Part shown: positions 17,043-57,881 of the stretch, piece after piece | Position numbering within the stretch: position 1 is the first letter of the stretch | Layout of the letters: every line of letters starts with the position of its first letter | Assembly (NCBI GenBank): GCA_030745875.1 | Contig: JASLNT010000050.1 | Coordinates: forward strand, 3,115-67,114 | Source of the DNA: Phycisphaerae bacterium | GTDB taxonomy: Bacteria > Planctomycetota > Phycisphaerae > SM23-33 | Length of the DNA stretch: 64,000 nt | Direction: 5' to 3' | The notes under the pieces: model-generated | Database searches by the model: none | What the model was told of the DNA's origin: nothing | Seen by the model: only the letters and a program-made list of their open reading frames with translations | Made by a program: the position numbers and the translations under genes

Positions 17043-17966
17043 CTATGCCCCGTAGAATGTTTCGACGTTGGCGCCCCTGACGTTCTTTCTTATCGTCGCT
17101 TCCAGTGCGTTCAAGTGCTCATCCGGAAGGGCGGTGACCGAGTCGCTGGGCGGTTTACGAGCTATTGTGTGGAGTTGGACCAGGGATATCTCCCCGCCGG
17201 CGTCAAGTATGTCTCTCAGGCGTCGGCAGTATGCTTCGACCTCGCCCGGCGGAGGACCGGCTCCGTCGATGCGGAACATCAGCGTCTGGATCACCACCGG
17301 CCGCAAACGAGCTATATGCGTGATGTCGGCTACGATATTATCGAGCGTTATGTTTCCGACGGGGCGGTTCACTTGCTGGAAGAATTCTTCGGTGCCCGCG
17401 TCGAGCTTAGCCCATATTTCTCCATTATTCTCGTCGAGAATCGGCAGGGCTCGCTGGAATTGCGGTGAGGCCAGACGCGTTGCATTGGTTATCACCACGA
17501 GTTTGACGTCGTCACAGCGGCAGTCCTTTCGAGCCTTTGCCGCCGTCTCGACCGCCCGGTCGAACTCCTTGGTGCAGGTCGGCTCGCCATCGCCGCTGAA
17601 GGCTATATCGTTGATTCTCCGCAGGTCCGCCGGTGTCCCGAGAAAGCGGGGCTCGTTCCAGAGACGACCGTTGCGGGCTTCTTCAATCGCCATGTGAAGC
17701 TCGTCGTGAAGGATCGCCAGATGCACTTCGCCGAGTTCCCGTCCGCATGTGCGGTCGATCTGACAATATATGCATCCGAACGTGCAGCTCATATCGGGAT
17801 TAATATTGACCCCGATGCTCAGACCCTTGGAGCGTCTGGAAATCACAGGGTATACATAGCGACATTCGCGCCATTGCCTGCGATGATCGGAGATTATTTT
17901 GGCCCTGGAATTGTTGGTTTTCGGTTCCACGATGGCATTATAGTCGTGCTGGTGGGCATACTTCAA
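17043..17966 (-). CDS. radical SAM protein (COG0731-like), specific function unknown
   Basis: C-x3-C-x2-C motif CTFGCIYCQ, preceded by VYPVISRRSKGLSIGVNINP. The ORF begins with TTG, so the start is uncertain. Confidence 0.75.
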   Translation of the reverse strand: MKYAHQHDYNAIVEPKTNNSRAKIISDHRRQWRECRYVYPVISRRSKGLSIGVNINPDMSCTFGCIYCQIDRTCGRELGEVHLAILHDELHMAIEEARNGRLWNEPRFLGTPADLRRINDIAFSGDGEPTCTKEFDRAVETAAKARKDCRCDDVKLVVITNATRLASPQFQRALPILDENNGEIWAKLDAGTEEFFQQVNRPVGNITLDNIVADITHIARLRPVVIQTLMFRIDGAGPPPGEVEAYCRRLRDILDAGGEISLVQLHTIARKPPSDSVTALPDEHLNALEATIRKNVRGANVETFYGA

Positions 17967-20763: not shown

Positions 20764-20958
20764 TGCAAACACCTCTCTGGCAAGACTATTGCCCAATGGC
20801 GCGATTGGCAAGGGCTAACGTGTAAGTGTATCCGAAGCGGGGATGGTTACAGTGTGTTGTAGTGGTTTTTGCGATAGCGTGAATGTAGGATTGTCAGGAA
20901 CATAATGGTTTGGTCGGGCGTCCAAGTCTGCGTGTCGGATGGACCCGGGAGCAGTCAA

Positions 20959-22647: not shown

Positions 22648-22648
22648 T

Positions 22649-23779
22649 CTAGCGTTTGCAGTTTATCGGCTCGTCGGATACTTCCGTTTTCTCGTCGCGC
22701 AGATGTTTTCCGAGAAACGCTTTGACCCGCTCCTGCGTTTCGGGCTGTTTGAATCCTCCGTGTCCGGCGTCGATCATCTTAATGAAAATCGAGGGTACGC
22801 CCGCTTTAGACAGGGTTTCGTGGATACGCTCGCCCTGGTTGAACGGGACGGTCTGGTCTTTCGTACCGTGCATCGTCAGAACGGGCGCATCGCCTTTCGA
22901 TACGTGCGTTACCGGCGATGCGTTGCGGGCGGCGGCCTTGTTCTTGTGGATGGCTCCGCCGAGGAGTTTCGCTTCCGGCGAGTCCGGCGCGTCGTGCTTC
23001 AATCGGCTGGGATACTTGCCTATCGTCAACATATCCGTTGGTCCGAACCAATTTACGACGCATGTGATGCGGCTGTCGAATTTGAGGTTCTTTCCGATCT
23101 TGCCCTCGAGTTCCTTGACGTCTCCCGATACGCCCAGCATCGCCGCCAAATGCCCGCCCGCCGACGTGCCCCAGACTGCGATGCGGTCGGGGTTGAGATT
23201 GTGTTTCTTCGCGTTGGCTTTGAGGTGGCGGATGGCGGCTTTACAGTCGTGAATCTGCGCCGGCCAGATCGCTTCTTTGCTCAGCCGATATCCGATCGAT
23301 GCGCCCGCGTATTGACCCGATTCGACGAACGGGGCGACCATTCGCATTCCGCCGGATTTGTTGCCCGCACGCCAGGCTCCGCCGTGAATGAACACCACCA
23401 ACGGAAGAGGTTTGTCGGACTTGCGGGTCTTGGGCAGGAACAGATCGAGGGTCTGGCGAGGATTGTCATTGGCGGCGTAGGATATGTCGCGGATGGCGTT
23501 TATGTTTTTGTTCTGCGGTCTGCGATTATTGCGACGCCCTCGAGACAGGAAGTCCAGGTGCTCCTTTACGGAGATAAACCCGTTCTTGTCCGTATCGACC
23601 CGGTCGAAATTCCTCCGCGGACCTTCGGGCAGTTCGTCGCGCGAGAGCTTGAGATCTGAGTTGCGATCCCATTTCTTGAACAAGGCGTTGGGTTTGGGGG
23701 TTTTGTCGGCGGCCTGTATTGGTGTCGAATGTGACAGGCATGCGGTTAGCAACGCGGTAATCGTTAGAATTCTGGTCAT
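22649..23779 (-). CDS. secreted alpha/beta-hydrolase (esterase/lipase-type) with N-terminal EF-hand pair
   Basis: Signal peptide present. EF-hand-like DRNSDLKLSRDEL and DTDKNGFISVKEHL. Oxyanion region VFIHGGAW, nucleophile elbow GTSAGGH, and C-terminal DAGHGG. Confidence 0.8.
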   Translation of the reverse strand: MTRILTITALLTACLSHSTPIQAADKTPKPNALFKKWDRNSDLKLSRDELPEGPRRNFDRVDTDKNGFISVKEHLDFLSRGRRNNRRPQNKNINAIRDISYAANDNPRQTLDLFLPKTRKSDKPLPLVVFIHGGAWRAGNKSGGMRMVAPFVESGQYAGASIGYRLSKEAIWPAQIHDCKAAIRHLKANAKKHNLNPDRIAVWGTSAGGHLAAMLGVSGDVKELEGKIGKNLKFDSRITCVVNWFGPTDMLTIGKYPSRLKHDAPDSPEAKLLGGAIHKNKAAARNASPVTHVSKGDAPVLTMHGTKDQTVPFNQGERIHETLSKAGVPSIFIKMIDAGHGGFKQPETQERVKAFLGKHLRDEKTEVSDEPINCKR

Positions 23780-23910
23780 GGGATTTCTCCTGGCGCAGAC
23801 GATAGTATCGGTTCATCAAGATGCTTCCGCAAGGATAGTAACTTGTGCGGGAGAAAGGTAACATTGAAATACATTTCGCTCGTGGAACTTCCCAACGGTA
23901 CAATCGGCGG

Positions 23911-24843
23911 ATGGTTTCTCCGGATGCAGAACTCACCGCTGTGGTTTGCGACCTCGCGATTGAGGTCGGTTTTTCACGCGCCGGGGTCGCGCCGGCCGGT
24001 GATTTGGGCTGTAGCGAGAAGTTCGACGAGTGGGTGGCGCGGGGTTGGCATGCGGATATGACGTATATGGGACTGCACGAGTCTAAACGCAGACGTCCCG
24101 ATCTACTGGTTCCCGGAGCCGTTAGCGTGCTTTCCCTGGCGGTGGGATATGCTCCGGACGGCGAGGATTCAACTGAGGGCGCCCCGGGATACATTGCACG
24201 GTTCGCACGTGGACGGGACTATCACAAGGTGCTCAAGCGTTGGTGCCGCGAACTAATGGACCGTCTGTGCGAGATTGCCCCGGACTTTGCCGGGCGCGCG
24301 TTTGTGGACACCGCACCGGTTATGGAGCGGTCGCTGGCGGCTGCGGCCGGGCTGGGCTGGATCGGGCGGAACGGATGTCTGATAGTCGATGGGCTGGGCA
24401 GTTACGTGGTGCTTTGCGAGATAGTATCAAATCTTCCGCTGGTCCCCGGGAGTCCGGTCGAGCGGGCGTGCGATGAGTGTGACGCATGTATCCGGGCCTG
24501 CCCGACGGGCGCTCTCGATGCCGACGGCCTGGTCGACTCGCGAAAGTGCCTCAGTTATCTGACGATTGAGCATCGCGGGCCTGCGACTGAGGAGATGATA
24601 AGCTGCAATCGCAGTCTGTACGGATGCGATCTCTGCCAGGAAGCCTGCCCGCATAACAGCGACCTCACGCCCGGTGATGACGAACTGATATCGTGGAACG
24701 GTCCGGAGATCAGGTTGGCTGACGTAGGGGGCTGGACCGCCGAGGATTGGGACATCGCCACGCGCGGACGGGCGATCAGGCGTGCGAAATACGACATGTT
24801 CATTCGGAACGCCGTGACCGCTGCGGCGCGACTCGTCGAGTGA
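23911..24843 (+). CDS. queG: tRNA epoxyqueuosine(34) reductase QueG
   Basis: Ferredoxin-type motifs CDECDACIRACPTGAL and CDLCQEACPHN, plus the CLSYLTIEHRG block typical of QueG. The start was trimmed to ATG 23911. Confidence 0.85.
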   Translation: MVSPDAELTAVVCDLAIEVGFSRAGVAPAGDLGCSEKFDEWVARGWHADMTYMGLHESKRRRPDLLVPGAVSVLSLAVGYAPDGEDSTEGAPGYIARFARGRDYHKVLKRWCRELMDRLCEIAPDFAGRAFVDTAPVMERSLAAAAGLGWIGRNGCLIVDGLGSYVVLCEIVSNLPLVPGSPVERACDECDACIRACPTGALDADGLVDSRKCLSYLTIEHRGPATEEMISCNRSLYGCDLCQEACPHNSDLTPGDDELISWNGPEIRLADVGGWTAEDWDIATRGRAIRRAKYDMFIRNAVTAAARLVE

Positions 24844-24912
24844 TTCGGATTTGACTCCGGCCGCATAAACGCGGTATAAGGACCAAACTACCGTTCAAGC
24901 AGGATTAACACC

Positions 24913-25500
24913 ATGACCGACAACGCAAAACCAGACAAGAAAATCGATATCGACGCGATCAGCCAGGCAGTCAGACAGATATTGCTGGCGGTAGGGGAGG
25001 ATCCCGACCGCCAGGGCCTTAAGGACACTCCAAATCGCGTCGCCAGAATGTACGCTGAATTGTTCAGCGGGATGGACCAGGACGCCGGGAAGCACCTGAA
25101 GGTCCACTTCGACGAGCAATACGACGAGATGGTTGTCCTGCGCGATATCCCGTTCTATTCGGTCTGCGAGCATCACCTCCTGCCGTTCATGGGCAAGGCG
25201 CACGTGGCGTATCTTCCGGACGGTAAGGTTGTGGGCATATCGAAACTCGCTCGCGTGGTCGACACGTTCGCCCACCGACCGCAGGTGCAGGAGCGCCTGA
25301 CCTGCCAGATAGCCGACGCGCTCATGGATCAGCTCAACGCGCGCGGAGTGGGTGTTATTATCGAAGCCACTCACACGTGCATGACGATCCGAGGCGTAAA
25401 AAAACCTAACGCCGAAATGGTTACCTCGGTAATGCGAGGCCTGTTCAAATCGAATCTCGCCACACGCACCGAAGCTATGAAGCTGCTGACCGGCAGGTGA
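24913..25500 (+). CDS. folE: GTP cyclohydrolase I (FolE type 1)
   Basis: 195 aa. [22 protein letters not shown]...RPQVQERLT matches the FolE active-site block. Confidence 0.92.
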
Positions 25501-25574: not shown

Positions 25575-27824
<2,250 letters not shown>

Positions 27825-27838
27825 GAAGGTTTGTCTTC

Positions 27839-30067
27839 TCAGTGACGCACTTGTATTCGATTGCCTGATTTGGTGATCTGGATTCTCTCCAGCGTCACCA
27901 AGCCCCATTTGTCGGCTTCCACCTTACCGTTCTGAATAGCTTTATCTCCGCCCAGAGGCGTGTTGGTCCACGTGAACGTTTTTCCTGGCGGACATTTGAA
28001 TTGTTGTAGGCGGCGTGGGGTTACGTTTGCAGTGCACTTGTCGGCTGGGGCGTTGGGCATCAGTTTCACGGTCATCTCCCACCGATCGGGCTTGTCGACG
28101 ATTGCCCCGGTGTCCCAATACAACCAACGATTCGCGTATCCCGACGGGTCGCCGTCGTAGGGGTCCTTCATTATGCGACCTTCACGGTTCTTGTGTTCGG
28201 CGGGCGAGGCGAGCTTCTTGCCCGTGCCCGGGTCCCCGTCGAGACTGCATTTTGTGAAGGCGGGCAGAGATGCGTCCGTGCGGATGTCGAGCGGTAGGGA
28301 ATTGCCTGAGGCGCCCGGTCCGGGAAGCACAGCTCGAACGCCGTGTCCGCCGAGAGCCCAGTGGAAAACGTGCGGCTGGCGGGCTTCCTGGAGGGCTTGA
28401 AAGTACGCCAACGCCTGAGGCCAGCCGATAGCTCCGTCATCCTTACCGTTGCCGAAACAGATTAGCGGCATGGATGTTCCCGGGTGCTTTCGAATCCAGG
28501 CCGCATCGTCGAAGTGTTCAAAGGCGGTGGTTCCGCTTTCGTGTTTGAGTTTCCAGTCAAGCCTGCCGTAGCACAATTCGTACGAACCCAGGAAACGAGG
28601 CGTACGCGCCGGTATGTGTACGCCCACCCACGACGAGACCCACGCCACGCGCTTGGGTCGGTGCGTTGCGTAGACCGGGGCGCCCGAACCGCCCATCGAG
28701 TTTCCGGCTGCTATGGTTCGAGTTGGGTCTATTCGGTAGTTGGCGCAGACCCAGTCGAAGAACGCATCATATCGCTTTTGCGTGTACGATCGGACCACGC
28801 CGGTGGACCACGATTTCCACGTGCCTTTGGCCTGGTGGTATCCGGTCCACCAGTCGTACGGAATCTGGTTTGTCGACACAAGCACGGTTGTCGCCGGCGG
28901 GCGATTATACCACCATCCGTACCCTCCATTCAGGCTTCCGCCCCAGCAGTGGAACGCCATGCACGCCGGCGCGGGCCACTTGACCTTGTCCGGGACCGCA
29001 ACCAGGTAATCGAAAGGGCGGCTGGGGATGTTCGAGCGCGGAGGGGCCTCCCAGCGAACGTAGTATCGCAGCGTGGGCCTGGTGTGGTACATGAACTTGT
29101 CGGGCTTTTCGGTTCGCTGGAGGATCGGCTCGCCCGGGCCGACGATTTCGTCTATCGGACCGATCGTATTCATGTCGCCGAACTTCTCCAGGTCCTCGGC
29201 CCCGTTCACGGCGACAGTCACCGCATACCACGCCTTGCCCGCTTTGACCGGATTGTGTGCGTAGACGCCCACGCCGGGCTTCACCGGACCCTTGCCGTCC
29301 TCGACGGCGTAACGCAGCGCGGGCTTGTCCTTCTTCGGGTAGATTCCGTAATACTCACCGTTCCAGCAGGTAAGCGGTTGGATTTCGTCGATCAGCACGG
29401 CCTGGCCGATAGTCTTCGCTGAGATTGGCTCGCTGGATCGGTATATGCGATACGTGGTTTTTTTTGCCCCCGCATCAAGCTTCTTACGGGCGGCGCGGAG
29501 TTCGGCGATCGTGAGTTTTGTTGCAGTGATCGGTGCGTTGAACTCGTCAAATGTCAGTATTGTCTGTCCGGCGCGATGGCGGGCCTTCAAGTTCGACACG
29601 GTCGGTCCGGGGGCGGGGACCTTGCCTGCGGAAGTTACGTCCAGCCGGATCGTCTTGCCGTCCCATCCGGGCAGCGACTCGATCTTCAGCGTAAGGGTCC
29701 GTCCGGTCTTTAGCGCTGCGATTGCGGCCTCGGTGACGTCGAAGCTCCTGTAACGCGGTGGCGCGAGCGGTAAGGGCTTGCCTGCAGCCGTAACGCTGAT
29801 CCTCGCCAGCGCCTCGCGTTTCTGTCCGGAGAAAACCGGGCGTTTCATGTGGACTCGAGCGCGATATACATGGGTCTTCCCGATGGCCGAGAGATCAAAC
29901 GTGACGGTCGGCGAAGCGATTTTGACGGTATTGGCATGCGTTGCGTCGCCGCCTCCGAAAGTTGTCGTAACGGCCCCGTCAAGCAGCGCCGCCGGGAAAC
30001 AGACAAGCAGTCCAACGGCTGCGATGCTACTTATCATACGAAATGAAGACTGATGTGAATGAGTCAT
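27839..30067 (-). CDS. secreted multidomain protein, paralogue A of a tandem triplet; alpha/beta-hydrolase-like core with an intact G-N-S-M-G-G elbow
   Basis: 742 aa with SD AGGAAAGGA. N-terminal module TTTFGGGD...[10 protein letters not shown]...VYRARV (DNRLRE/CBM-like). The core has [21 protein letters not shown] and LGGHG. The conserved C-terminal beta module ends ...[11 protein letters not shown]. Confidence 0.8.
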
Positions 30068-30115
30068 TCCGCTGTCCTTTCCTGGGCTATGATCCGGCCG
30101 CCTCAGACCGGCGCA

Positions 30116-32329
30116 TCACTCGGTGCGGCGGATTGTAAGGCGGCTTTTCTGTTTGCCCAGACGCAGGTTCTTCACCGTCACCAGCCCCCATTTATCAGCA
30201 ACAGCCCTGCCGGACTGGAACGGTTTTGCGTCTTTGGCGTTCGAGTGTGTCCATGCAAATCGCTGGCCCGCCTTTGCTTTGAACTTGCGGCATCGGCGGG
30301 GGGTCAGGTCGGTAGTGCATGTTTCGGCGGGGCAGTTGTCTCGCAGGCTGACGGTGATCTCGAATTTGTCGGGCTCATCAAGCAGCGTCTCGGGCTGCCA
30401 AATCTGGTATAGATTGATCCCTCCGCCTTTTTCCGCATCGGTGTGGTCGCCGTCGCCGGGCGTGTGGTCCAGCGAGCAGTTTCCGAAGGCGGGCAGCGCC
30501 TGATCGCGCCTGATGCGTGTCACCAGATCGCGCAGAGGTCTGACACCACCGGGTCCGTTGGACGACCAGTTGGCTGCGAACGCCCGCTTTGTCGAGGCCA
30601 TTGCGTGGATCATTTCGGGCCAGGGCATGAAGCCGAAATCGCCGATCGTGTGGCTGGGATATGCTCCGTAGGCCGGCCAGCACAACCAGTATGGCAGCTC
30701 CACTGTCGGATTCCGGCGCACCCACTTGGCGAGGTTCATGTACTCCCACTGGTCGACGCCGCGCCAGTTCTTGGAGCCCTTCGGGTACGGTCCCCATTTC
30801 CAACCGTGCTTCTGGGCCTCCTTGCCGATGGCGATATTCCCGTATCCGTTAGACATGACAACGGAGAAGACGTCCCCGTGTCGCAGCGCCCAGTGGGCCA
30901 TCTGCCCCCAGATGTAAGTACGCTGCGGGTCGAGGTGCAGGTCTTTCCTCGACAGCGCCCATGCTGCAGCCGACAGGACGCGCCGCTGCGGGTAGTTGTG
31001 GACGACGCCCTGCTTGTAGCTTCCCAGCGTGCCGATACACTCATGAAATCCCTGCCACATGCCGCCCTCGGCCAGGCCGACCGTCAGTACGCCCTTGAGG
31101 TGTCTTCTGGCCCGATGCCAACCCGGATTGCTCATCTCCGTAGCCGAGCCGCCGTGGGTGGTCTGCTTGACAAACAGCCCCAACTTACGTTTCGGCGTGC
31201 CTGGGGGAGTGTCCTTCCACCTGGCGACGAATACTTCTGAAACGTGGGGCACGTTGTGGTACGGCGGGCTCAGCCAGGCGCTGTAAACATCCACAACGCA
31301 TTGACCGCCCCGGGGGTCTTTGCGGCTGCGCTGGTGGATGAGTGCGGGGAACCTCGCCGGTTTTTCATCTACGGGTTTGGTCAGGGCTGCGCCGCCGAAA
31401 CTTCCGACCGCCTCCCGCCCGTCGACCGCCGTCGAGACAGCGTAGTACAACCGAGCGAGTTTGGCGGCGGTGGACACCGCCAGGCCCGTCGCGCGGGGCA
31501 GGGGCGGGCCGTTCGGCGTTATGCGGTATCGGGTCATCACGTGATTCAACGCCAGATTTCGACCAGGGCGAAGTGGAGACCTTTTTGTTTTCGTGCCCTG
31601 GTTCGGGTGCTCGGTGTTCCGAATGGCCAGCAGATTCCAGGCTGGTGTCACCGCAGGTATCTCGATCGCGAGTCGGGCCTGGGCGATTGTCCCGGATGTT
31701 ATGGGCTTTGTGTGCACGTAGATTCTGTAGGCGACGCGCCGTTTGGCGCGGGCGCGCAGTATGGCCTGGTCGAACGCCTCGAATGCAGGGGCGTCAGCGC
31801 CGACGACATCCTCGATTTCCCGCCAGGTCAGGAACGTCTGGCCGGATTGGTGGACGGCCCGCAACTGCGTGACCTGGCGCAAAGGCTTCTTGATCGTCCC
31901 GAGATAACTGACCTCCAGCACGGCCTGGTCGAACCTGACGCCCCCGTCGGCCTCGATACGCAGGCCGAGATTGCTCTTGGCGTCCGCCGTCCAGGCTCCG
32001 ACTGCTTCGGCGGCGTCGAAGGTCACGTAGTCCGGCGGGCGCAGCAGCAGTGGTTTCTCACCCGCGACGCCGACGGGTGTCACACGCACCTCGGCCCCGT
32101 GCCGATGTCCCCGGGTATCAGTGCGGAGGACCGCCCGAATGATATTCTTCCCGGCAACGGCGCTGAGGTCGAACTGCAATGCCTGCCGGGACGCCTTCAA
32201 CGTTCCGCGGTGCTCGCAGTGCGGGGCGTTGCCGAAAGTTGTCGTAATCAAACCCTTCTCGGCGGCGAGCGTTCTTCCGGCCGGCAGGATCAACGCGATG
32301 ATCGTCAAGAAACTCCAAAGGGCTTTCAT
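30116..32329 (-). CDS. secreted multidomain protein, paralogue B of the triplet; predicted nucleophile and His positions substituted
   Basis: 737 aa. ATG 32329 overlaps the stop of paralogue C (ATGA), with SD GGAGGTGGAG. Signal peptide MKALWSFLTIIALILPAGRTLAA. The architecture matches A, but the elbow region reads IWGQMAHWA. Confidence 0.8.
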   Translation of the reverse strand: MKALWSFLTIIALILPAGRTLAAEKGLITTTFGNAPHCEHRGTLKASRQALQFDLSAVAGKNIIRAVLRTDTRGHRHGAEVRVTPVGVAGEKPLLLRPPDYVTFDAAEAVGAWTADAKSNLGLRIEADGGVRFDQAVLEVSYLGTIKKPLRQVTQLRAVHQSGQTFLTWREIEDVVGADAPAFEAFDQAILRARAKRRVAYRIYVHTKPITSGTIAQARLAIEIPAVTPAWNLLAIRNTEHPNQGTKTKRSPLRPGRNLALNHVMTRYRITPNGPPLPRATGLAVSTAAKLARLYYAVSTAVDGREAVGSFGGAALTKPVDEKPARFPALIHQRSRKDPRGGQCVVDVYSAWLSPPYHNVPHVSEVFVARWKDTPPGTPKRKLGLFVKQTTHGGSATEMSNPGWHRARRHLKGVLTVGLAEGGMWQGFHECIGTLGSYKQGVVHNYPQRRVLSAAAWALSRKDLHLDPQRTYIWGQMAHWALRHGDVFSVVMSNGYGNIAIGKEAQKHGWKWGPYPKGSKNWRGVDQWEYMNLAKWVRRNPTVELPYWLCWPAYGAYPSHTIGDFGFMPWPEMIHAMASTKRAFAANWSSNGPGGVRPLRDLVTRIRRDQALPAFGNCSLDHTPGDGDHTDAEKGGGINLYQIWQPETLLDEPDKFEITVSLRDNCPAETCTTDLTPRRCRKFKAKAGQRFAWTHSNAKDAKPFQSGRAVADKWGLVTVKNLRLGKQKSRLTIRRTE

Positions 32330-34743
32330 TTCTCCACCTCCTTCGTCTCAAGCCGCACGATCAGCCGCGCTGGCGCCGCGAAGGTTACGTTAGCTATGGG
32401 GATGTGCCCGTGCTCATCGACTTTCGTCCGACCGCGCTGAAGTAGTTTCTTGGACTTCAGATCCGTTGTGGTCCACTGCAACTTCACCCCGCGTTTCGGG
32501 GCAAATCGCTGCAGGTTACGGATCGTCACGTCGCACGCCACTTTGCCTGCGTAGGTTACGTCAGGGGCGGTGTAGATCGTTATTTCCAATCGATCGGGTT
32601 GATCGACGATAGTCTCGCTGTTCCACCGCGGGCGCGTGTTGAGTCGGCTTCCGCCCCCGTATCCTCGCTTGCCCGTGTCGAAATGCGTCTCGAAGAACTT
32701 CGCGTTTGGGCTGCGAACCAGGGCGTTGCAGGCGAGCACAGGGCGGTCAGTGCGCGGTTCGAACTCCTCGGCCGGAAGCGGCACGTGGGCTCTTCCGCCC
32801 CAGAAGAAGGGCGCCATTACCGCGTTTCGCGTGTCGAGATACGCCTTCATCAGCTCGGTTTCCTGCTTCCATGTTACGTGCATTGCCCCGGCCCCGAGCG
32901 AGATAAAGGGCAGAGTCTTGCGATCTCCGACGGAGCGCACGTAGGCCGGAAGGTTTACTTCGTCCCATATCTTCTTGCCGCTTTGGGCCTCGATGCCCCA
33001 GGCGATACGGCCCCAGACGGCGACCATGTCTTTTCTGCGTGTGTCGCTACGGTCGCCTCTTCCGTAGCGGCTGTAGACGTCGGGTGTCTGGCGGGGATCC
33101 GGATCGGGAGAGTTCTCTGCGCAGATGTAGGCGATCTTCCCCGGGCGCCGCAGACCGTATTGCAGCGCGGCCGTACCGCCCAGATACCCTCTTCCGCCGC
33201 ATGAAACCCGGCCCGCGTCGGCGCCGAACTTTCTCAACGCCCATTCGGTAAACGCCTCGGTGCGGCGTGCGAAGAATGGTTGGACCTTGCCCTGCTTCAG
33301 CGATCGCAGCGTTCCCAGCGATTCGTGGTATCCATAACCGAACGACCGAATCGGCGCGTCGTGGGGCGAGAGTATGATCGCGTCCTTGCGGTGGGGCCAG
33401 GGCGGTTTGAGATAGCGTTGGCGGTAGTCGTGGAAAAAAATGACCATTCGTTTCGCCGCAGCTGTCGCGAAATCCCGCGGTAGGAACACGCCCCAGTTGT
33501 AATACTGGTTTGGCAGGTGGCTGTGCGGGGGCGCCGACCACTGCACGTATTGATTCCGCCTACCCGGGTAATCGTAGAAGACCGTCACGTCCGGTTGTCC
33601 CTGAAGGACCGGCTGGCCCGGGCCGACTACCTCGCCCAGGGCTTGCCCCGTCGTATTGGCTCCGGAGAAATCGCGCGTGTTCGCCACACCATCGGCGACA
33701 GATACAACCGCGTAGTACGCCCGGCCGGGCTTTTTGGGCTGGTGCACGTAGAGCCCCATGTGGGGCTCCAGCGGTTTGGCGGGGACGATCGCCAGGCGAC
33801 CAATGCGCACTTCGCCCATCTCGGGCATGTCCGGATGATACTTTGAGAAGTAATTATTGCGGGCCAGGCGTTTGGCGAAATCAGTGTCTTCGAGCGCCCT
33901 GCGTCGGTGAATTGCTATGAGTTGGTCGACGGAACGCCCCCGGATGTTGTAGCCGCTCATAGGCTTGACTTCGCCGAGCAGGCGGGCTTTGGCGAGCGTG
34001 TCGGCTGTTATGCGTTCGGCGCTGCGATAGATGCGATAGCGAAGCTCGCTCCTGGCGTCCATCGTGTCGAGTTGCTGCTTCATCGCCGCCCACGTCGGAG
34101 CCTTGCTGGAGGAACGATCGTCGGTTTCGCGGAAGACGATGAAAGTCTGCCCGGCCCGATGCAGGACCTTCAAACCGCTTGCCTGGGCGGGGACCTTGCC
34201 AACTTCGCCTTCGTAGGCTACGTCCAGAGCGACTGCGTCGCGACGCCACAGCGGACACGCGCGGACCAGGAATCCGCCGTTGGGCTTACCCGCCGCCCAT
34301 GCGCGAACGGCCCCGGTGGCGTCGAAACGGTCGTACCAGGGACCGCGAAGCTTCAATGTGTCTCCGACTTCGGCGGGCTTATCACCAGCCTTGAACGCTG
34401 CCCCCAGAGGGCGAATATCGATGTCGCGCACCGCCTCGTCCTGCCGGCCGTCAATTGCCCGAGTCCGGAATATTCGCAAGTCCGCCCGGTAGATTCTCAC
34501 GTCTTTCGGCAGGGTCGACAGGTCGAATCGCACCACGTGCTGATTTTCGCTGGTCGGGAGGATCTCGCAGCCTTTGGCCTTCCTCGGCTGGGGGGGGCGA
34601 TCAGCCGGCTTGGCGCTGCCATTGGACGGCGGGGGAGTTTGCGGTGCTTGACCCCATCGTTGCGTCACAATCCCCGCCTGTGCTGAGACGCACAAGACGC
34701 TCAGGGAGAAGACGGCGGACACGCTGAGCTGCGCTGGGCTCAT
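32326..34743 (-). CDS. secreted multidomain protein, paralogue C of the triplet; elbow reads GGRGYLGG
   Basis: The start was trimmed to ATG 34743 (after AGGAAGATT), giving MSPAQLSVSAVFSLSVLCVSAQAG. It shares the FDLS N-terminal module, the YRIYRS region, the core and the C-terminal beta module with A and B. Confidence 0.8.
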   Translation of the reverse strand: MSPAQLSVSAVFSLSVLCVSAQAGIVTQRWGQAPQTPPPSNGSAKPADRPPQPRKAKGCEILPTSENQHVVRFDLSTLPKDVRIYRADLRIFRTRAIDGRQDEAVRDIDIRPLGAAFKAGDKPAEVGDTLKLRGPWYDRFDATGAVRAWAAGKPNGGFLVRACPLWRRDAVALDVAYEGEVGKVPAQASGLKVLHRAGQTFIVFRETDDRSSSKAPTWAAMKQQLDTMDARSELRYRIYRSAERITADTLAKARLLGEVKPMSGYNIRGRSVDQLIAIHRRRALEDTDFAKRLARNNYFSKYHPDMPEMGEVRIGRLAIVPAKPLEPHMGLYVHQPKKPGRAYYAVVSVADGVANTRDFSGANTTGQALGEVVGPGQPVLQGQPDVTVFYDYPGRRNQYVQWSAPPHSHLPNQYYNWGVFLPRDFATAAAKRMVIFFHDYRQRYLKPPWPHRKDAIILSPHDAPIRSFGYGYHESLGTLRSLKQGKVQPFFARRTEAFTEWALRKFGADAGRVSCGGRGYLGGTAALQYGLRRPGKIAYICAENSPDPDPRQTPDVYSRYGRGDRSDTRRKDMVAVWGRIAWGIEAQSGKKIWDEVNLPAYVRSVGDRKTLPFISLGAGAMHVTWKQETELMKAYLDTRNAVMAPFFWGGRAHVPLPAEEFEPRTDRPVLACNALVRSPNAKFFETHFDTGKRGYGGGSRLNTRPRWNSETIVDQPDRLEITIYTAPDVTYAGKVACDVTIRNLQRFAPKRGVKLQWTTTDLKSKKLLQRGRTKVDEHGHIPIANVTFAAPARLIVRLETKEVEK

Positions 34744-34803
34744 AATCTTCCTCGCTCTACTGTACACAATAACGAAATCTGAACAAGAGAACCCGAGTTT
34801 GCT

Positions 34804-35739
34804 CTACTTCAGCACTTCGCCTTTGGTGACGTCGCCCTTGGCGTCCAGGAGGAACAGGCCCGAAATCGCGCTGAGTCGTTTGTCGTAGACTTTCCAGACG
34901 ACCTTCTTGTCGGGGGTGATCTCGAAGAACTGAGGATTCCCGCCGTACCATCCGGTCACCGTGTTTCCGTTGCTCAGGCGCTGCAGGCCGCAGACGAATT
35001 TGCATTTGAAGCCTTCGGGCTGGTCCTTCGGCTCGAACTTCCAGACGATCTTGTCCTTGGGGTCGATCTCCACGATCGTGCCCGTTCCACCGGTCGTAAT
35101 CAGCGTATTGCCGTTCTTCAACCGCAGCACGCCGTGCAGTTTGGCGCTCTTTACGCCCAGTGCGTTCAGGTCGATTGTCCGGACGATCTTGCCCGCCCCG
35201 TCGAGTTCCTTTACGACACCCTCGCCCGTGAACGCCACCACGTACGTTCCCTTGGCGGTCTTGCGAGCCATACGGAACTGATCGTGAATCTTTGTGGTTG
35301 TCGTGGTGAGCTTGATCTCTTTGGCGACCTTGCCCTGGCGGTCGACCTCGACCAGGCGGCTGGTCCCGCATTCGCAGATCAGGACATTCCCGTTGGGCAG
35401 CGGTTGACAGGAGTGGATCTCGAGCCCCTTGACGTTCGGGGCCTTGTATTCCCATACGACCTTCTTGTCCTTGACGGTCACCTCTTTGGCGCCGGTGCGA
35501 TGGCAGAACAGGAGGTTCCCGTTGGGCAGCTTCCAGACGTCCTGGACGTTTCTGGCGGGGTATTCCCACTCGATTTCGCCCTTGGGCGAGACTATACAAA
35601 TTTTGCCTGCTCGGAAGCATTGGGCGATGAACGGATGGGATATCTTCGCGGGCTTCGGGTCGGCGGCTTGGCAATTTGCAAAGAAAACACCGGCCGTTGC
35701 CAGCAGAACAGCCGAAGCCAACACGCTGTTTCGGTTCAT
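34804..35739 (-). CDS. secreted beta-propeller protein (PQQ/BamB-like repeats)
   Basis: Signal peptide MNRNSVLASAVLLATAGVFFANCQA. Repeated blade-like segments (VWEY..., LPNGNLLF, LPNGNVLI, LKNGNTLI, LSNGNTV). SD AAAGGAA lies upstream. Confidence 0.7.
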   Translation of the reverse strand: MNRNSVLASAVLLATAGVFFANCQAADPKPAKISHPFIAQCFRAGKICIVSPKGEIEWEYPARNVQDVWKLPNGNLLFCHRTGAKEVTVKDKKVVWEYKAPNVKGLEIHSCQPLPNGNVLICECGTSRLVEVDRQGKVAKEIKLTTTTTKIHDQFRMARKTAKGTYVVAFTGEGVVKELDGAGKIVRTIDLNALGVKSAKLHGVLRLKNGNTLITTGGTGTIVEIDPKDKIVWKFEPKDQPEGFKCKFVCGLQRLSNGNTVTGWYGGNPQFFEITPDKKVVWKVYDKRLSAISGLFLLDAKGDVTKGEVLK

Positions 35740-35810
35740 GGTCGATTCCTTTCAGATTGGGTGCGTAGAAGAGCCCTCAAGCCTACCAGAACGTTCCGAC
35801 GCCTGCAATC

Positions 35811-36818
35811 TTAGTCGGCGTAGAAGGCGTCTGGCGCCAGTTCGTCGAAACCGCCGCCGGCGTGCAGATGGCGTCGGACATCCATGCACAGATCGCATTT
35901 GGAGATGTAGGCGTCGTTTTTGGGCTCGTAATTGTGATGCTCGCCGGCCCACTGCATCAGGGCGTGGGGCCCGCCGGTAGCCAGGCGCCAGAAGATCGGA
36001 TGACTTTCCGACGTGATTTTCGGGTGCAGGTCGCCGATCCTCCCCGCTGCAATACCGGGGCAGAGACCGGTGAACAGGTTTCCGAACGGATCGATGTGAA
36101 AGTGGCTGGTGTCGGCAAGAGTCTCGCCGCATCGGCATGAGCGATAGTGCTCGGCGGGTTGGGCCTGGTAGCCTTCGCGGAGTTCTTCGAGTACGCGTCC
36201 GCCCGGGATCAGGCCGTAGATATCCCCGACAGGGCCGACCCGATCTCCCAAACCGGCGGCTTGGCGGAATTCCGCCAGCGTGTTGGTCTTGTCGGCGGGC
36301 ATTTGCGACAGGGCCTGGTAGAACTGCGGTATCCAGACTATCACCCCGCCGCGCCCGAATACTTCGATGGCGGCTTCTACGCACGCTTGCGTCCGGGCGA
36401 ACGGGATGAACTCGTTGTGGTAGGGCGATGCGCTTACCAGGACGCCCGGAAGCCCGGCCTGGGCGAGTTTGGAGAAGCCTTCGCGGGCGGTCTTGCCGTC
36501 GGTGCACCACATTCCGTTTGTTTCCAGATAGCTCAACCGGACGCCCATCGGTGCGGCCAGTGCGACCACGTCGGCAAGCAGGTCCATCTTCAGCGCGGCT
36601 TCTCCGCCGGCGAGATGAACGTCGCGGAGTCGCGGTTCGCCGGCCAGTGCGGCGAACACTTCTTCGGCCCGTTCGAGAGACATCCACGTGTCGGCCTGCT
36701 GCGGCGAACATCGGTACAGGCAATGCTTGCACTTGTTGGTGCAGCGGTAGGTGAGCATAATTCCGCCCGACGTGAGCGGGGGAATCGTAAGAGTTGTGTC
36801 CGATGATTGCTGATCCAT
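35811..36818 (-). CDS. radical SAM protein with Cys-rich C-terminal (SPASM/twitch-like) region
   Basis: C-x3-C-x2-C motif CTNKCKHC near the N-terminus (GGIMLTYRCTNKCKHCLYRC). Additional C-terminal cysteines at CRCG, CPG and CDLC. Confidence 0.8.
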   Translation of the reverse strand: MDQQSSDTTLTIPPLTSGGIMLTYRCTNKCKHCLYRCSPQQADTWMSLERAEEVFAALAGEPRLRDVHLAGGEAALKMDLLADVVALAAPMGVRLSYLETNGMWCTDGKTAREGFSKLAQAGLPGVLVSASPYHNEFIPFARTQACVEAAIEVFGRGGVIVWIPQFYQALSQMPADKTNTLAEFRQAAGLGDRVGPVGDIYGLIPGGRVLEELREGYQAQPAEHYRSCRCGETLADTSHFHIDPFGNLFTGLCPGIAAGRIGDLHPKITSESHPIFWRLATGGPHALMQWAGEHHNYEPKNDAYISKCDLCMDVRRHLHAGGGFDELAPDAFYAD

Positions 36819-36826
36819 TAGGCGCG

Positions 36827-38179
36827 TCAGATCGGTTTTCCACCGATGGGACCTGTGGTTGGTACGGGGAAAGTGGTTCCGCCGGCGGGGAAGACCGTCA
36901 CCTTCTGCGGGTCCGAGCCGAGGAGCTTTTCGGCGGCTGCGAAGGCGTCTTCGGGCGTTGGGAATACTTCGAGTCCGGGGAAGTTCGCTCCGGTTTCGTG
37001 CAGGCTGCGCGCCACCAGGAAAATCGGATTGCGGTGAATCGTCTGCAGACCCATTCGCACGAAGAATCCCGCATCTCCAGCCAGCCTGGGAACCAACCGC
37101 AGCAGCAGCGAACAGAGCGCCTCAGGCCCCAGCCACCTGACTATCCTTCTGGTCCAGGCCGCACTGAGAGGCCATTTGGGCGGGTCCATTCCGTTGAGCC
37201 CCGCTTCGCAGCGCGACAGGCATATTATCACGCCTCCGGGGCGGGCCGCCCATCGCGTGTTAGCCACCGCCTTGAACGATTGCCATAAATCGAAATCACG
37301 CGGAAATGCGTTGGTTATAAGCACATCCGCCAGCGGAGCCGGCGTGATTATCCCGCAGGCTATCGAGCACTGTTTGGCCAGCATTCGTTGCGTGGATATC
37401 GGGTCTCCGGCTCCGATGTGAACGGGTCGATCATTATCATCGAGCATGTAATGCACCGCGAACGTCACGCCTCCGTAGGCGTCCAGCAGCTTCCCGCCGG
37501 CGTCTATCGCCGCCCGCATTGCGTTCTTCTCCGCGTCGGTCCCCACCATCTGTTTCGCGCGCCTGGTAAGGCCCAGGCGATGAAGCGGGCGGATCGTGTC
37601 CAGGTGACTGCATCCGGGGAATATCATCTTGAACCCGCCGCCGAAACCGGCCTGCAGGTGAGGGCAAACAGCCGATATTACGATTCGCAGGTCCGCTTGT
37701 GCGACTCGTTTGTCGACGAGATAATCAATCTTGCCCGCCGATCCGACCGAGACGTACTTGTTGCGATCGTGCCACGGGTTGTTTCTCCACTTGAGCTTGT
37801 CGACTTCCGGTCCGAGCTTCTCGGCGGCTTCTGCTTCGGTCATCGGAGGGTGCATTCCGTTTGCGAAGACCACTTCGACCTGATCGTCGGAGATGTTTGC
37901 GTGGCGGATTTCGCGCATCACGGTTTCCAGAATCTTGGAGACCGGTGAATGGCGGGTGATGTCTTCGACCACCAGGACAATGCGTCCGTTCGGTCTGGCT
38001 CCGAGCAGTTTACCCAGCGGCAGGGCGGTGTCGGGCTTGTTCAAAGCCGCCGCCAGACGGACAGGCCAGGCTTCCTTTCCGGGGCGCAACTGGCTTTCAG
38101 CGGTCTGCTGGACCGACCAGTTGTCGGGCAGCTCAATCGATAGACCTTTGTCGCTCCATGGTACGGAGATCGATGGCAT
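36827..38179 (-). CDS. LarA-like (DUF2088, nickel-pincer-dependent racemase/epimerase family) protein
   Basis: IVLVVEDITRHSP, FANGMHPPMT and VISAVCPHLQAGFGGGFKMIFPGC resemble the LarA N-domain blocks, including the GG-x-K motif. ATG 38179 (after AAAGGAA) gives MPSISVPWSDKGLSIELPDNW, a typical LarA start. The track start is 38239. Confidence 0.75.
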   Translation of the reverse strand: MPSISVPWSDKGLSIELPDNWSVQQTAESQLRPGKEAWPVRLAAALNKPDTALPLGKLLGARPNGRIVLVVEDITRHSPVSKILETVMREIRHANISDDQVEVVFANGMHPPMTEAEAAEKLGPEVDKLKWRNNPWHDRNKYVSVGSAGKIDYLVDKRVAQADLRIVISAVCPHLQAGFGGGFKMIFPGCSHLDTIRPLHRLGLTRRAKQMVGTDAEKNAMRAAIDAGGKLLDAYGGVTFAVHYMLDDNDRPVHIGAGDPISTQRMLAKQCSIACGIITPAPLADVLITNAFPRDFDLWQSFKAVANTRWAARPGGVIICLSRCEAGLNGMDPPKWPLSAAWTRRIVRWLGPEALCSLLLRLVPRLAGDAGFFVRMGLQTIHRNPIFLVARSLHETGANFPGLEVFPTPEDAFAAAEKLLGSDPQKVTVFPAGGTTFPVPTTGPIGGKPI

Positions 38180-38201
38180 TGGCGTTGGATTCCTTTTACT
38201 C

Positions 38202-39071
38202 TCAGGCGGGTCCGCCTGCGAGGCGACCGACGATAACATGATAAACGTTCAACGGTTCGGGAATCGAGACGAAATCTCCGAAGCCCGCCTGGGCGAACAA
38301 CGCCGACAGCTGCTCGGGGCTTCGATGGATCATATGCAGGCCCATTACGCGACGGAAGAACCGGTCCGTACCGTGGGCTTTGGAGATACTATTGAACACC
38401 ACAGATCCCCCCGGAGCCATTACTTCGGCCAGCGCCTTGACTATGTCGACGATCTGCTCGTCAGTCAGATACTCGCAGATACCAATCATCTTTACGACAA
38501 CCGGCGGGGGATCGAGCACATCCTTGACGTCTCGCACGTCGCCCTGAACGTACTTCACGCGATCGCCCACACCGCAGCTCTCAGCCAACTCGCGTCCGTA
38601 GTCAAACGCATCTGAGCTTATATCCACCAGCGTGGCGTACGAGCTTTCGGGCGCTTCGAGAAGGGCGTCGATGATGATTCTGCCCGGACCGGCTCCCAGG
38701 CACAACGCGTGGACTCCGTTTTCGGTTCCGTTATCGGCCTGTTCGATGAGCCTGGTCAGCAGCGTGGCCGCCAGGATACGACGATTCCGCAACGCCATAC
38801 TCATCGCGCCGCCATTGACGAGGAACTTGTCGGCGATCTGTTTGGGCTTTCCGTGGTAGCTTATCACCATCGATTTCCATCCGCCCGGATCGTTCCAGTT
38901 GCACTGGGCAAGCTCGCTCTTACCGAACCGCAGGGCGGCTTTCATTGCTACGGCGGGGATGTAGTTCACCAGCGGATTGAGCAGAGCCCGCTTCAGCACG
39001 CGCTTGACAGGCCCGATCCGTTCGAACTCAAGGTCGCCGACCCATGAATGTATTTCCTGATTCTGGTCCAT
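38202..39071 (-). CDS. class I SAM-dependent methyltransferase (Methyltransf_20-like)
   Basis: SAM-binding motif I ALCLGAGPGRII, then the acidic post-I residue in TLVDIS and GDVRDV. Its stop overlaps the start of the LarA-like gene. Confidence 0.8.
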   Translation of the reverse strand: MDQNQEIHSWVGDLEFERIGPVKRVLKRALLNPLVNYIPAVAMKAALRFGKSELAQCNWNDPGGWKSMVISYHGKPKQIADKFLVNGGAMSMALRNRRILAATLLTRLIEQADNGTENGVHALCLGAGPGRIIIDALLEAPESSYATLVDISSDAFDYGRELAESCGVGDRVKYVQGDVRDVKDVLDPPPVVVKMIGICEYLTDEQIVDIVKALAEVMAPGGSVVFNSISKAHGTDRFFRRVMGLHMIHRSPEQLSALFAQAGFGDFVSIPEPLNVYHVIVGRLAGGPA

Positions 39072-39426: not shown

Positions 39427-40845
39427 ATGGCGAAATGGAGATCGTGTGCGGGCGTTCTGGTTGTGGCGATCGTGTTGGGCGTCGCGGCGGGAGCCCCAGC
39501 CGAGTCGGTAAGTTCGCACCACGGACCCGCCTGGCGATCCTACACCAAGCCCACGTCGATTGTCTTCAGCGCTGACGGCCGCCGGATCACCGCGAAATAC
39601 TGGCGCGCCGCAACGAATCGCCCCGGAACCGACTGGGCCGCATTTGTCGTCAAGTGGGATCTCGTCGACAAGAAACGAACGATCACGCCGGACGCCTCGC
39701 CCTCGAGGTCCAAACACACCTGGTCGCCCCCATCGACCGCTACGGATAAGGAGTTGGCGGCCGCAAAGCGTCTCCGCCTGCTTAAGCTTATCGGCCGGGG
39801 CGATCGCGTCCGCCTCAGCAGCGACGGAAAGCTGGTTGCGATCTGTGCTCGCGGCAAGACCGTCCTGCGCAAGAGCGACGGGAAACTCATCAAGACATTT
39901 CCAGCGGGCGGGGGCCAGGCCGCATTCAGCCCTGACTCCAAACGCCTCGCCGCGGCCGACTATCGCGGTATCATCCGCATATGGGACATTGCAACGTCGA
40001 AGCTCCTCCGCACGCTTCGCCTCGACGACCACAATGAGAACACCGTCCTGGCCGCAGCCGTCCAGATCGCAAGCAAATTCGGCGACCCGAAGGGCAATCG
40101 CAAGAGAATCCGACAGGCCGTCGCCAGCGCCGCCCGCCTGGGCGCCAAAATCGTCGTTCTGCCCGAAACTGCCGTAACCGGGTACATGACGTACGATATC
40201 AAGACCGCCTGGCGAGTTCCCGGACGCAACATCAGCGATGAGTTGCAGGGCTCCGATCCCAAGGACGCCGCCGAGACCGTTCCCGGCCCGTCGACAAAAT
40301 TCTTTGCACCGCTGGCCAAACAGTACGGGATATACCTTACTGTCCCGCTCCTGGAAATCGACCGCAAGAGCGGAAAGCACTACAACACTTCGGTCCTGCT
40401 GGGCCCCGACGGGAAGATACTCATCCACTATCGCAAGCGGAATCCGTGGATATGGGCCGAGATGGGCTGGGCCGAAGAGGGCAATCTGGGCAATCCCGTG
40501 GTCGACACGCCGTTCGGGCGCCTGGGTCTGCTTATCTGCTTCGATGTCCACGATCAGTTCAAAGTGATGAGCAAGAAGAAGATCGACACGCTGCTCTATT
40601 CCATCGCCTGGGTCGACGGCGCCGGAAGCGACTGGTTTTCGGTGCAGCTTCCGTCCAGGGCAAAAGAATGCGCGTTCAATGTCATCGGAGCCAACTGGAC
40701 CCTTCCGAAGGATTTTAAACCGAAATGGCACGGTTACGGTAAGAGTCTGATCATCTCATCCAAGGGCAAGATCCTCGCCAAAGCCGCCAAAGACCTGTCC
40801 GAAGAAACAGTCTTCGCCGAGATCCCAATCCCAAAGGCCAAGTAG
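39427..40845 (+). CDS. secreted fusion protein: WD40-like repeats plus carbon-nitrogen hydrolase (nitrilase superfamily) domain
   Basis: Signal peptide MAKWRSCAGVLVVAIVLGVAAGAPA. WD-like segments include FSPDSKRLAAADYRGIIRIWDIATSKLLRTL. CN-hydrolase E-K-C blocks are VVLPETAVTGY, HYRKRNPW and LLICFDVHD. Confidence 0.8.
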   Translation: MAKWRSCAGVLVVAIVLGVAAGAPAESVSSHHGPAWRSYTKPTSIVFSADGRRITAKYWRAATNRPGTDWAAFVVKWDLVDKKRTITPDASPSRSKHTWSPPSTATDKELAAAKRLRLLKLIGRGDRVRLSSDGKLVAICARGKTVLRKSDGKLIKTFPAGGGQAAFSPDSKRLAAADYRGIIRIWDIATSKLLRTLRLDDHNENTVLAAAVQIASKFGDPKGNRKRIRQAVASAARLGAKIVVLPETAVTGYMTYDIKTAWRVPGRNISDELQGSDPKDAAETVPGPSTKFFAPLAKQYGIYLTVPLLEIDRKSGKHYNTSVLLGPDGKILIHYRKRNPWIWAEMGWAEEGNLGNPVVDTPFGRLGLLICFDVHDQFKVMSKKKIDTLLYSIAWVDGAGSDWFSVQLPSRAKECAFNVIGANWTLPKDFKPKWHGYGKSLIISSKGKILAKAAKDLSEETVFAEIPIPKAK

Positions 40846-57683: not shown

Positions 57684-57881
57684 ATGACGAAACGCGAAAT
57701 AATAGACGGAATACTTCGGTTCAATCGAAGTGCTGACCCGGGTTTTCTCTCGCAGTTCAACAGCGTGGAACTTGCCGAATACCTCGATCACCTTGAGGCG
57801 GCCGAACGGACCGTCATCGCTCGCGGGCCAAGCCCGTGGGAAGGTACATTCGAATACGACGGCGTACCGCAATACGCCTGA
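57684..57881 (+). CDS. small hypothetical protein (65 aa)
   Basis: ATG with GAGG 10 nt upstream, balanced composition, and a strong terminator 50 nt downstream. No family recognised. Confidence 0.4.
   Translation: MTKREIIDGILRFNRSADPGFLSQFNSVELAEYLDHLEAAERTVIARGPSPWEGTFEYDGVPQYA

Follow-up and report, generated by a model that had tools for sequence, protein, structure and literature searches.

A conserved methyltransferase and LarA homologue gene pair of marine Phycisphaerae as a candidate two-gene nickel-pincer nucleotide module

Introduction

The LarA superfamily is represented by Lactobacillus plantarum LarA (5HUQ/6C1W), the malate racemase Mar2 (LarAH6; 6D6Z), and the broad-spectrum LarAH2 of Isosphaera pallida (9EID), and most of its phylogenetic groups are without a known substrate (PMC11770544). 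Genomic context has so far been the main route to the substrates of this superfamily. The present analysis concerns a gene for a LarA homologue (LarAH) and the adjacent gene for an S-adenosylmethionine (SAM)-dependent methyltransferase (MTase) in a 64,000-nucleotide stretch of DNA from a Phycisphaerae bacterium (contig JASLNT010000050.1 of GenBank assembly GCA_030745875.1, positions 3,115 to 67,114 of the forward strand; the stretch is hereafter the window and the assembly the source genome). An initial annotation had placed both genes in a compact cluster of unknown pathway, together with genes for a radical SAM enzyme and a secreted beta-propeller. Comparison with related genomes narrowed this proposal to the first two genes, as the link between MTase and LarAH was strong and the LarAH active site was intact while a three- or four-gene pathway was unsupported.

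The closest structural counterpart of the MTase, 3OCJ, is Bordetella parapertussis BPP1064, an orthologue of B. pertussis FmtB (BP2936), for which the role of a free-fatty-acid carboxyl methyltransferase has been proposed (PMC5426589). According to that article, 3OCJ was crystallized with a palmitate-like ligand that directs its carboxylate toward the SAM site, and FmtB increases the fatty-acid methyl ester content of cells in vivo (PMC5426589). For the radical SAM protein, the nearest described enzyme is the peptide epimerase YydG/EpeE of Bacillus subtilis (8AI1-8AI6).

Conservation of the MTase-LarAH gene pair

A census of 92 genomes of the same Phycisphaerae family identified LarAH in 87 and the MTase in 85 of them. 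The MTase gene was directly upstream of LarAH and on the same strand in 84 genomes and in one further genome with a frameshifted LarAH (85/87). The two remaining genomes had LarAH without the MTase, where contig ends are suspected, the LarAH match lying 2-3 kb from one contig end. None of the 92 genomes encoded the MTase without LarAH, and both genes were missing from the same five genomes, two of which were more than 93% complete.

The same arrangement was found beyond the census. Seven LarAH homologues with 58-89% identity, on metagenome and genome contigs, were all directly preceded by a Methyltransf_20 gene, and the gene downstream of LarAH was different at each of these loci. A tblastn comparison covered 43 loci from three families of the class, two of them copies of the source genome's own locus. 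In all 41 non-window loci, with LarAH identities of 41-88%, the gene immediately before LarAH was the MTase, in the same orientation. Three LarAH relatives with 34-36% identity, all from family f103, were without an MTase and the pairing thus marks a LarAH subgroup, not all related LarAHs. No LarAH orthologue was identified outside the class in 300 sampled genomes of the phylum at E <= 1e-60, and the MTase-LarAH pair is confined to Phycisphaerae. This synteny, together with the shared pattern of presence and absence, is very strong support for a functional link between MTase and LarAH. In this family of marine Phycisphaerae, the pair is a single-copy core trait.

The only recurrent neighbors of the pair were folE/queG (7/26 loci) and a small uncharacterized protein (12/26). 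At these 12 loci, the small protein gene is divergent from and directly beside the MTase. The protein (window copy at 57684-57881, + strand, 65 amino acids) starts with MTKR(Q/E)(L/I)IDxI..NRSA.P.FL..F...EL..YL.HL. and has no significant Pfam match, and its longer homologues often end in WLF. As this gene is 18.6 kb from the MTase here, the MTase-side flank has also been expanded by inserted genes, which include a CN-hydrolase, a C25 peptidase, and a PEP-CTERM giant gene. A WD40-like/CN-hydrolase fusion gene (39427-40845, + strand) is divergent from the MTase in the window and stands beside the pair in the closest relatives (L013, L014, L017, and L019; 58-73% identity). More distant family members do not have it, and it is consequently a genus-level neighbor.

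LarAH residues and cofactor supply

LarAH matched Lar_N (PF09861) with 126 bits compared to a cut-off of 23.3, and all listed homologues carried the same domain. Its best Protein Data Bank (PDB) matches were Mar2, I. pallida LarA, and L. plantarum LarA. In an alignment of 48 LarAH orthologues compared with the solved LarA structures, R76, H110, H174, Q300, and K303 were invariant and corresponded to Arg75, His108, His174, Gln295, and Lys298 of L. plantarum LarA, respectively. K184 and H200, equivalent to the cofactor-tethering Lys184 and the nickel ligand His200, were each conserved in at least 90% of the orthologues. H110 and H174 occupy the positions of His108 and His174 in 6C1W and of His108 and His171 in Mar2. 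In the L. plantarum enzyme, K184 falls on the lysine of the GG.K motif and H200 on the His that follows downstream. The LarAH motifs D.TR and W-Q-x-x-K aligned to DHTR and Y-Q-x-x-K, which hold the Arg, Gln, and Lys residues that bind the substrate carboxylate and hydroxyl.

The suggestion in the initial annotation that the tethering lysine of the GG-x-K motif is retained was borne out, this residue being nearly invariant among orthologues, and the proposed alignment check on the LarA catalytic His and Lys residues found every catalytic and cofactor residue in place. Judged at the level of these residues, LarAH looks functional as a nickel-pincer nucleotide (NPN)-dependent 2-hydroxy-acid racemase/epimerase. 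It was below the curated cut-off of every NCBIfam LarAH equivalog compared (LarA, LarAH5, LarAH6, LarAH10, LarAH14-16, and LarAH18): the best score was 176.9 bits for LarAH6 compared to a cut-off of 500, and the others gave 28-168 bits against cut-offs of 460-740. By these profile scores LarAH is in no characterized LarAH subgroup, and it is best described as a putative NPN-dependent 2-hydroxyacid racemase/epimerase of an uncharacterized subgroup.

NPN is made by LarB, LarC, and LarE and, as initially noted, none of the three genes is within the window. A search of the whole source genome (6.2 Mb in 131 contigs), which the initial annotation had suggested, identified LarB (293.5 bits), LarC (228.1 bits), and LarE (326.4 bits), all above their curated cut-offs and on the separate contigs C11, C67, and C16, respectively. 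The concern over missing larBCE genes is removed because all three are encoded on these other contigs, and LarC was also found in 84 of the 92 family genomes. The source genome encodes a second LarA homologue outside the window (C11:14624-15931, + strand, approximately 430 amino acids) that carries the DHTR, GTHR, PHEVVGFSGGAKY, and downstream His motifs (R/H/H/K/H). It is approximately 29% identical to the window LarAH and, so far as checked, no MTase was seen beside it. The window protein is one of only two LarA homologues in the source genome predicted to be able to use NPN.

The methyltransferase

The MTase matched Methyltransf_20 (PF12147) with 43.7 bits compared to a cut-off of 21 and also Methyltransf_25, and PF12147 was matched by 50 of 50 MTase orthologues. 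SAM motif I (L123-C-L-G-A-G-P-G130) and D150, the acidic residue after strand 2, were invariant. The AlphaFold model (pLDDT 93.9) comprised a Rossmann core with a very conserved N-terminal helical cap that has invariant motifs of its own, NW.DPGGW and ALRNRR. Five arginines (R95, R97, R240, R241, and R250) were also invariant, a pattern that fits an anionic small substrate.

The sole full-length PDB match was 3OCJ, with a TM-score of 0.72 (Foldseek TMq 0.72, TMt 0.70). The remaining structural matches (TM approximately 0.5) covered the Rossmann core only and were small-molecule O-, N-, and C-methyltransferases. By sequence, the best PDB match was to the Rossmann core of CmoM, a carboxyl methyltransferase that forms a methyl ester. 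The MTase thus resembles carboxyl methyltransferases, and it may methylate a carboxyl group. A reading in terms of dimethylsulfoniopropionate-type metabolism was considered as DsyB, which methylates a 2-hydroxy acid, was among the fold matches; it was not adopted since DsyB ranked no better than dozens of O-methyltransferases and matched in the Rossmann core only.

MTase homologues with 36-38% identity occur in two genomes of another Planctomycetota family, in operons L086 (3921-11943, - strand) and L085. The gene order there is ketoacyl synthase, alpha/beta-hydrolase, GH3 adenylating enzyme, MTase, second MTase, DUF362-ferredoxin, and DUF1571, and the operon resembles a pathway to a fatty-acid-derived product. 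DUF362 is the sister family of DUF2088 and the outgroup of the LarAH tree (PMC11770544). An hhalign comparison of LarAH with the DUF362 protein of this operon was not significant. The DUF362-ferredoxin gene near an MTase homologue hints at a wider partnership between this MTase family and the LarA fold and is recorded as a lead.

Locus organization and accessory genes

The four minus-strand genes were present and tightly packed as initially annotated, and their domain assignments were upheld by Pfam and NCBIfam (Table 1). The gaps of 8 nt between the LarAH stop and the radical SAM start and of 71 nt between the radical SAM and propeller genes were also correct. In contrast, the reported overlap of the MTase stop with the LarAH start was an artifact of taking the longest open reading frame (ORF). 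In all 43 homologous loci LarAH starts at the ATG that corresponds to window position 38179 (Met21 of the long ORF), and the two genes are therefore separated by a true spacer. An AAAGGA or GGA motif recurred in the spacers of most of these loci. Long open frames had hinted at MTase-LarAH fusion proteins, which were rejected as a stop codon separated the genes in 43 of 43 loci. A promoter and terminator scan of the locus gave nothing above the shuffled expectation, and no riboswitch or other RNA element was matched in Rfam at E <= 1. A search for transcript evidence found the locus sequence only in DNA runs from seawater metagenomes.

Table 1. Coordinates of the MTase-LarAH pair, its accessory genes, and the synteny anchors in the window.
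Feature	Coordinates	Strand	Length	Remarks
MTase, SAM-dependent, Methyltransf_20 type	38202-39071	-	289 aa	First gene of the conserved pair
MTase-LarAH spacer	38180..38201	-	22 nt	Reads TGAGAGTAAAAGGAATCCAACGCCAATG; Shine-Dalgarno-like motif AAAGGA inside
LarA homologue (LarAH)	36827..38179	-	450 aa	Second gene of the pair; length counted from the conserved ATG
LarAH, longest ORF form	36827-38239	-	470 aa	
Radical SAM enzyme, probable auxiliary Fe-S site	35811-36818	-	335 aa	Accessory gene
Secreted beta-propeller, Mala_s_1-like	34804-35739	-	311 aa	Accessory gene
Variable insert	25575..36818		~11.3 kb	Between LarAH and folE-queG
queG	23845-24843	+		Pfam QueG_DUF1730/Fer4_16; ancestral convergent neighbor, synteny anchor
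folE	24913-25500	+		Pfam GTP_cyclohydroI; ancestral convergent neighbor, synteny anchor

The region downstream of LarAH differed between close relatives. On the contig that carries the LarAH with 89% identity, the order is MTase-LarAH-folE-queG-BD-FAE esterase-LamG followed by later genes, and the insert genes are absent. The window holds the matching folE, queG, esterase, and LamG genes at 20905-25500, and folE-queG likewise lie directly after LarAH in L008, the P0005 contig, L059, L060, L061, L065, and L069. Between LarAH and folE, the window has an insert with the radical SAM gene, the propeller, three secreted paralogues of the DNRLRE/esterase-like type, and a DPP-IV-type peptidase; in genome G388, of the same genus, this slot is occupied by nothing but the radical SAM gene and an esterase-like gene of another kind. 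The latter (L069 9407-10378, - strand) encodes a 323-amino-acid secreted protein with a GQSNMSG motif and the look of a sialate-O-acetylesterase or SASA-type esterase. Because the insert is absent from the contig with the 89% identical LarAH and its content differs in G388, the LarAH-folE slot is a variable region that collects different secreted hydrolase genes.

The propeller matched PF22701 (Mala_s_1-like) with 88.5 bits and gave approximately nine additional tblastn loci in the source genome (E 1.6e-67 to 9e-06), of which six were close to full length. Among the loci examined, a propeller gene was beside the radical SAM gene elsewhere only in metagenomic contig L014.

The radical SAM protein had a Radical_SAM score of 36.4 bits, and the cysteines of its CX3CX2C motif (C26, C30, and C33) were invariant in 42 homologues. 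The initial annotation had pointed to further C-terminal cysteines like those of SPASM/twitch domains. Among these, C253 (CPG) and C308/C311 (CDLC) were invariant in the same 42 homologues, whereas the CRC cysteines were not conserved, and the protein had no match to the SPASM domain PF13186. C253, C308, and C311 together with His239/His241 could hold one auxiliary cluster. The best NCBIfam match was YydG (TIGR04078) with 59.8 bits compared to a cut-off of 300 and over the N-terminal 125 positions only, and the structural model (pLDDT 94.4) had EpeE/YydG as its best fold match (TM 0.52-0.56).

The distribution of this gene was sparse. It adjoined LarAH in two of the 92 family genomes, the source genome and G388, so that the MTase-LarA-radical SAM trio was not conserved as neighbors, an outcome that the initial annotation had itself named as evidence against its cluster. 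Orthologues with at least 50% identity were present in 7 of the 92 genomes, the gene was missing entirely from three of five congeneric genomes, and the contig with the 89% identical LarAH also had no copy. Homologues with approximately 55% identity elsewhere in the Planctomycetota were single genes beside ThiF/HU, ETF/TPR, or YjbQ/DUF1540. In two genomes of another genus of the family (G416:C59 and G614:C45), a radical SAM orthologue with 56-57% identity lies approximately 15 kb from the pair on the same contig. An 83-codon ORF, initially suggested as a conserved small ORF or peptide gene, had no counterpart in close relatives and was rejected as a precursor peptide because it was not conserved; the radical SAM homologues elsewhere also had no small neighbor in common that could represent a precursor peptide gene. 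The genes for the radical SAM enzyme and the propeller are local additions that can be separated from the pair; judging by their position, they are probably co-transcribed with it in the source genome.

The window also contains a second, unrelated radical SAM gene (17043-17966, - strand, 307 amino acids) beyond a gene for an 855-amino-acid protein. The contig with the 89% identical LarAH likewise has genes for an 839-amino-acid protein, a 92-amino-acid protein, and the 307-amino-acid radical SAM protein. In contrast to the accessory radical SAM gene beside LarAH, the one at 17043-17966 belongs to the conserved backbone.

Proposed function of the pair and alternative explanations

The functional unit is probably a two-gene module of MTase then LarAH, and not a four-gene cluster, in which an acid is inverted by LarAH and methylated by the MTase. 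In this module, LarAH would receive NPN from LarB, LarC, and LarE encoded elsewhere in the genome and, by analogy with all characterized LarA homologues, would invert the C2 stereocenter of a 2-hydroxy-carboxylic acid. The two catalytic histidines would serve as acid and base, with hydride passing to and from the pincer cofactor via a transient 2-oxo intermediate. The MTase, with its helical substrate cap, would act on the acid of LarAH, most likely by esterification of the carboxylate and less likely by methylation at another position. LarAH would act first since it requires a free carboxylate for binding via Arg75, Gln295, and Lys298. Reversible racemization followed by irreversible methylation would then give the pathway direction and yield one stereoisomer of a methylated 2-hydroxy acid, and the radical SAM and propeller genes would not be needed for the pair to work. 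As some LarAHs accept hydrophobic 2-hydroxy acids (PMC11770544), a hydrophobic or fatty 2-hydroxy acid is a possible substrate. More speculatively, the pair might be a dedicated nickel-pincer pathway to one stereoisomer of a methylated, possibly hydrophobic or fatty, 2-hydroxy acid that the family uses as a core metabolite, lipid component, or signal; this more specific proposal is tentative.

Several observations weigh against the two-gene module. No enzyme of a hydroxy-acid pathway was a conserved neighbor of the pair. The C-terminal third of LarAH departs from canonical LarA_C: the PF21113 match was partial (25.7 bits compared to a cut-off of 25, profile positions 6-54 of 152) and the PDB alignments ended near residue 330-350. 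The link from the MTase to FmtB is remote at 14% identity, and FmtB activity was reportedly not obtained in vitro (PMC5426589). The CmoM match is limited to the Rossmann core, and the MTase homologues with 36-38% identity belong to an operon without LarAH. Finally, given the 8-nt spacing between LarAH and the radical SAM gene, the two may be functionally linked in this particular genus.

That spacing is part of the case for a single dedicated pathway of MTase, LarAH, and radical SAM enzyme, with or without the propeller, in which the radical SAM enzyme performs a further step on the shared metabolite, cofactor, or peptide, e.g., a second epimerization or C-H functionalization. The corresponding gap in G388 is approximately 11 nt, no terminator above chance lies between the genes, the LarAH-radical SAM(-propeller) order is shared by the source genome, G388, and contig L014, and the nearest fold is that of an epimerase, EpeE/YydG. 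Nevertheless, such a pathway is unlikely in view of the rarity of the radical SAM gene beside LarAH and in the family as a whole, its absence from most genomes of the same genus and from the contig with the nearest LarAH, homologues that stand alone beside unrelated genes, and the lack of a conserved peptide gene nearby. The strict one-to-one co-occurrence and adjacency of MTase and LarAH would also be expected of an enzyme and its maturase, with the MTase methylating LarAH itself or the NPN cofactor as a maturation or regulatory factor, and the conservation of no other pathway enzyme nearby is consistent with this. It is made quite improbable by the fold and best matches of the MTase, which point to small-molecule methyltransferases whose helical cap is closed (3OCJ, DnrK, PhzM, and CurJ), by the activity of all characterized LarA homologues without a methyltransferase (PMC7583248, PMC11770544), and by the presence of related MTases in a lipid- or natural-product-like operon that has no LarAH.

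In another alternative, LarAH would be an oxidoreductase that exposes a 2-oxo acid for C-methylation by the MTase, giving a beta-methylated 2-hydroxy acid. LarA chemistry does run via a bound 2-oxo intermediate (PMC7583248), and structure and sequence searches with the MTase returned, among others, the alpha-keto acid methyltransferases SgvM (8rxg) and MppJ. However, SgvM and MppJ were no better than dozens of O- and N-methyltransferases (TM approximately 0.5, E 0.14-0.6), no MppJ-type metal-binding His motif was identified in the MTase, and LarA enzymes are not known to release or expose the oxo intermediate, so this route appears more improbable still. The least probable explanation is that the adjacency is inherited synteny without a shared function. 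The family is a single lineage and common descent could explain part of the conservation, but gene order, orientation, and the short spacing persist at LarAH identities as low as 41% across three families in which all other neighbors change, and the five genomes without the pair have lost both members. The module in which LarAH inverts and the MTase methylates a common acid remains the preferred explanation.

Comparison with known systems and implications

The strictly co-inherited methyltransferase provides a clear context signal for this LarA subgroup. If the proposed coupling is true, it would show how a thermodynamically neutral racemase gains direction. The more specific proposal of a dedicated nickel-pincer pathway would, if true, represent a new physiological role for NPN enzymes, with the first racemase driven one way by coupled SAM methylation. 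As the radical SAM and propeller genes are separable, a four-gene pathway need not be pursued and the target is narrowed to the pair. The term methyltransferase appears nowhere in the two LarA-superfamily surveys or their supplements, and no match was found for PF12147 or Methyltransf_20 in the literature collection searched. What is new is an uncharacterized LarA subgroup with an obligatory methyltransferase partner. Though undescribed, it extends a known enzyme family only modestly, and its reaction probably builds on the chemistry already known for LarA.

Among described systems, the radical SAM protein is like YydG/EpeE in its CX3CX2C motif and extra conserved cysteines for a second cluster, and unlike it in profile score (59.8 compared to 300 bits), fold similarity (TM approximately 0.53), the lack of a YydF-like peptide gene, and its varied contexts. 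The NPMN-dependent AKR family (PMC13524815) was rejected owing to an unrelated fold. The MTase shares with FmtB/3OCJ a helical cap and Rossmann core over the whole protein at a TM-score of 0.72. It differs in sequence (approximately 14% identity, with 3OCJ absent from a profile-to-sequence search at E <= 1) and in the invariant NW.DPGGW and ALRNRR motifs of its cap; FmtB activity is supported in vivo only and no LarA partner is noted for FmtB in the available part of its description (PMC5426589). In the operon with the 36-38% identical MTase homologue, the DUF362-ferredoxin gene is two genes downstream, so that this MTase family is found near a LarA-related fold in two settings. That operon, from two genomes only, differs from the pair in also containing a ketoacyl synthase, an alpha/beta-hydrolase, GH3, and a second MTase. 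The closest correspondence is between LarAH and the LarA superfamily, which have in common the N-terminal fold family, the tethering Lys, the nickel-binding His, both catalytic His residues, the carboxylate-binding Arg, Gln, and Lys, and a genome with larB, larC, and larE. LarAH is set apart from the described members by scores of at most 177 bits compared to subgroup cut-offs of 460-740, by its divergent C-terminal third, and by its strict MTase partner.

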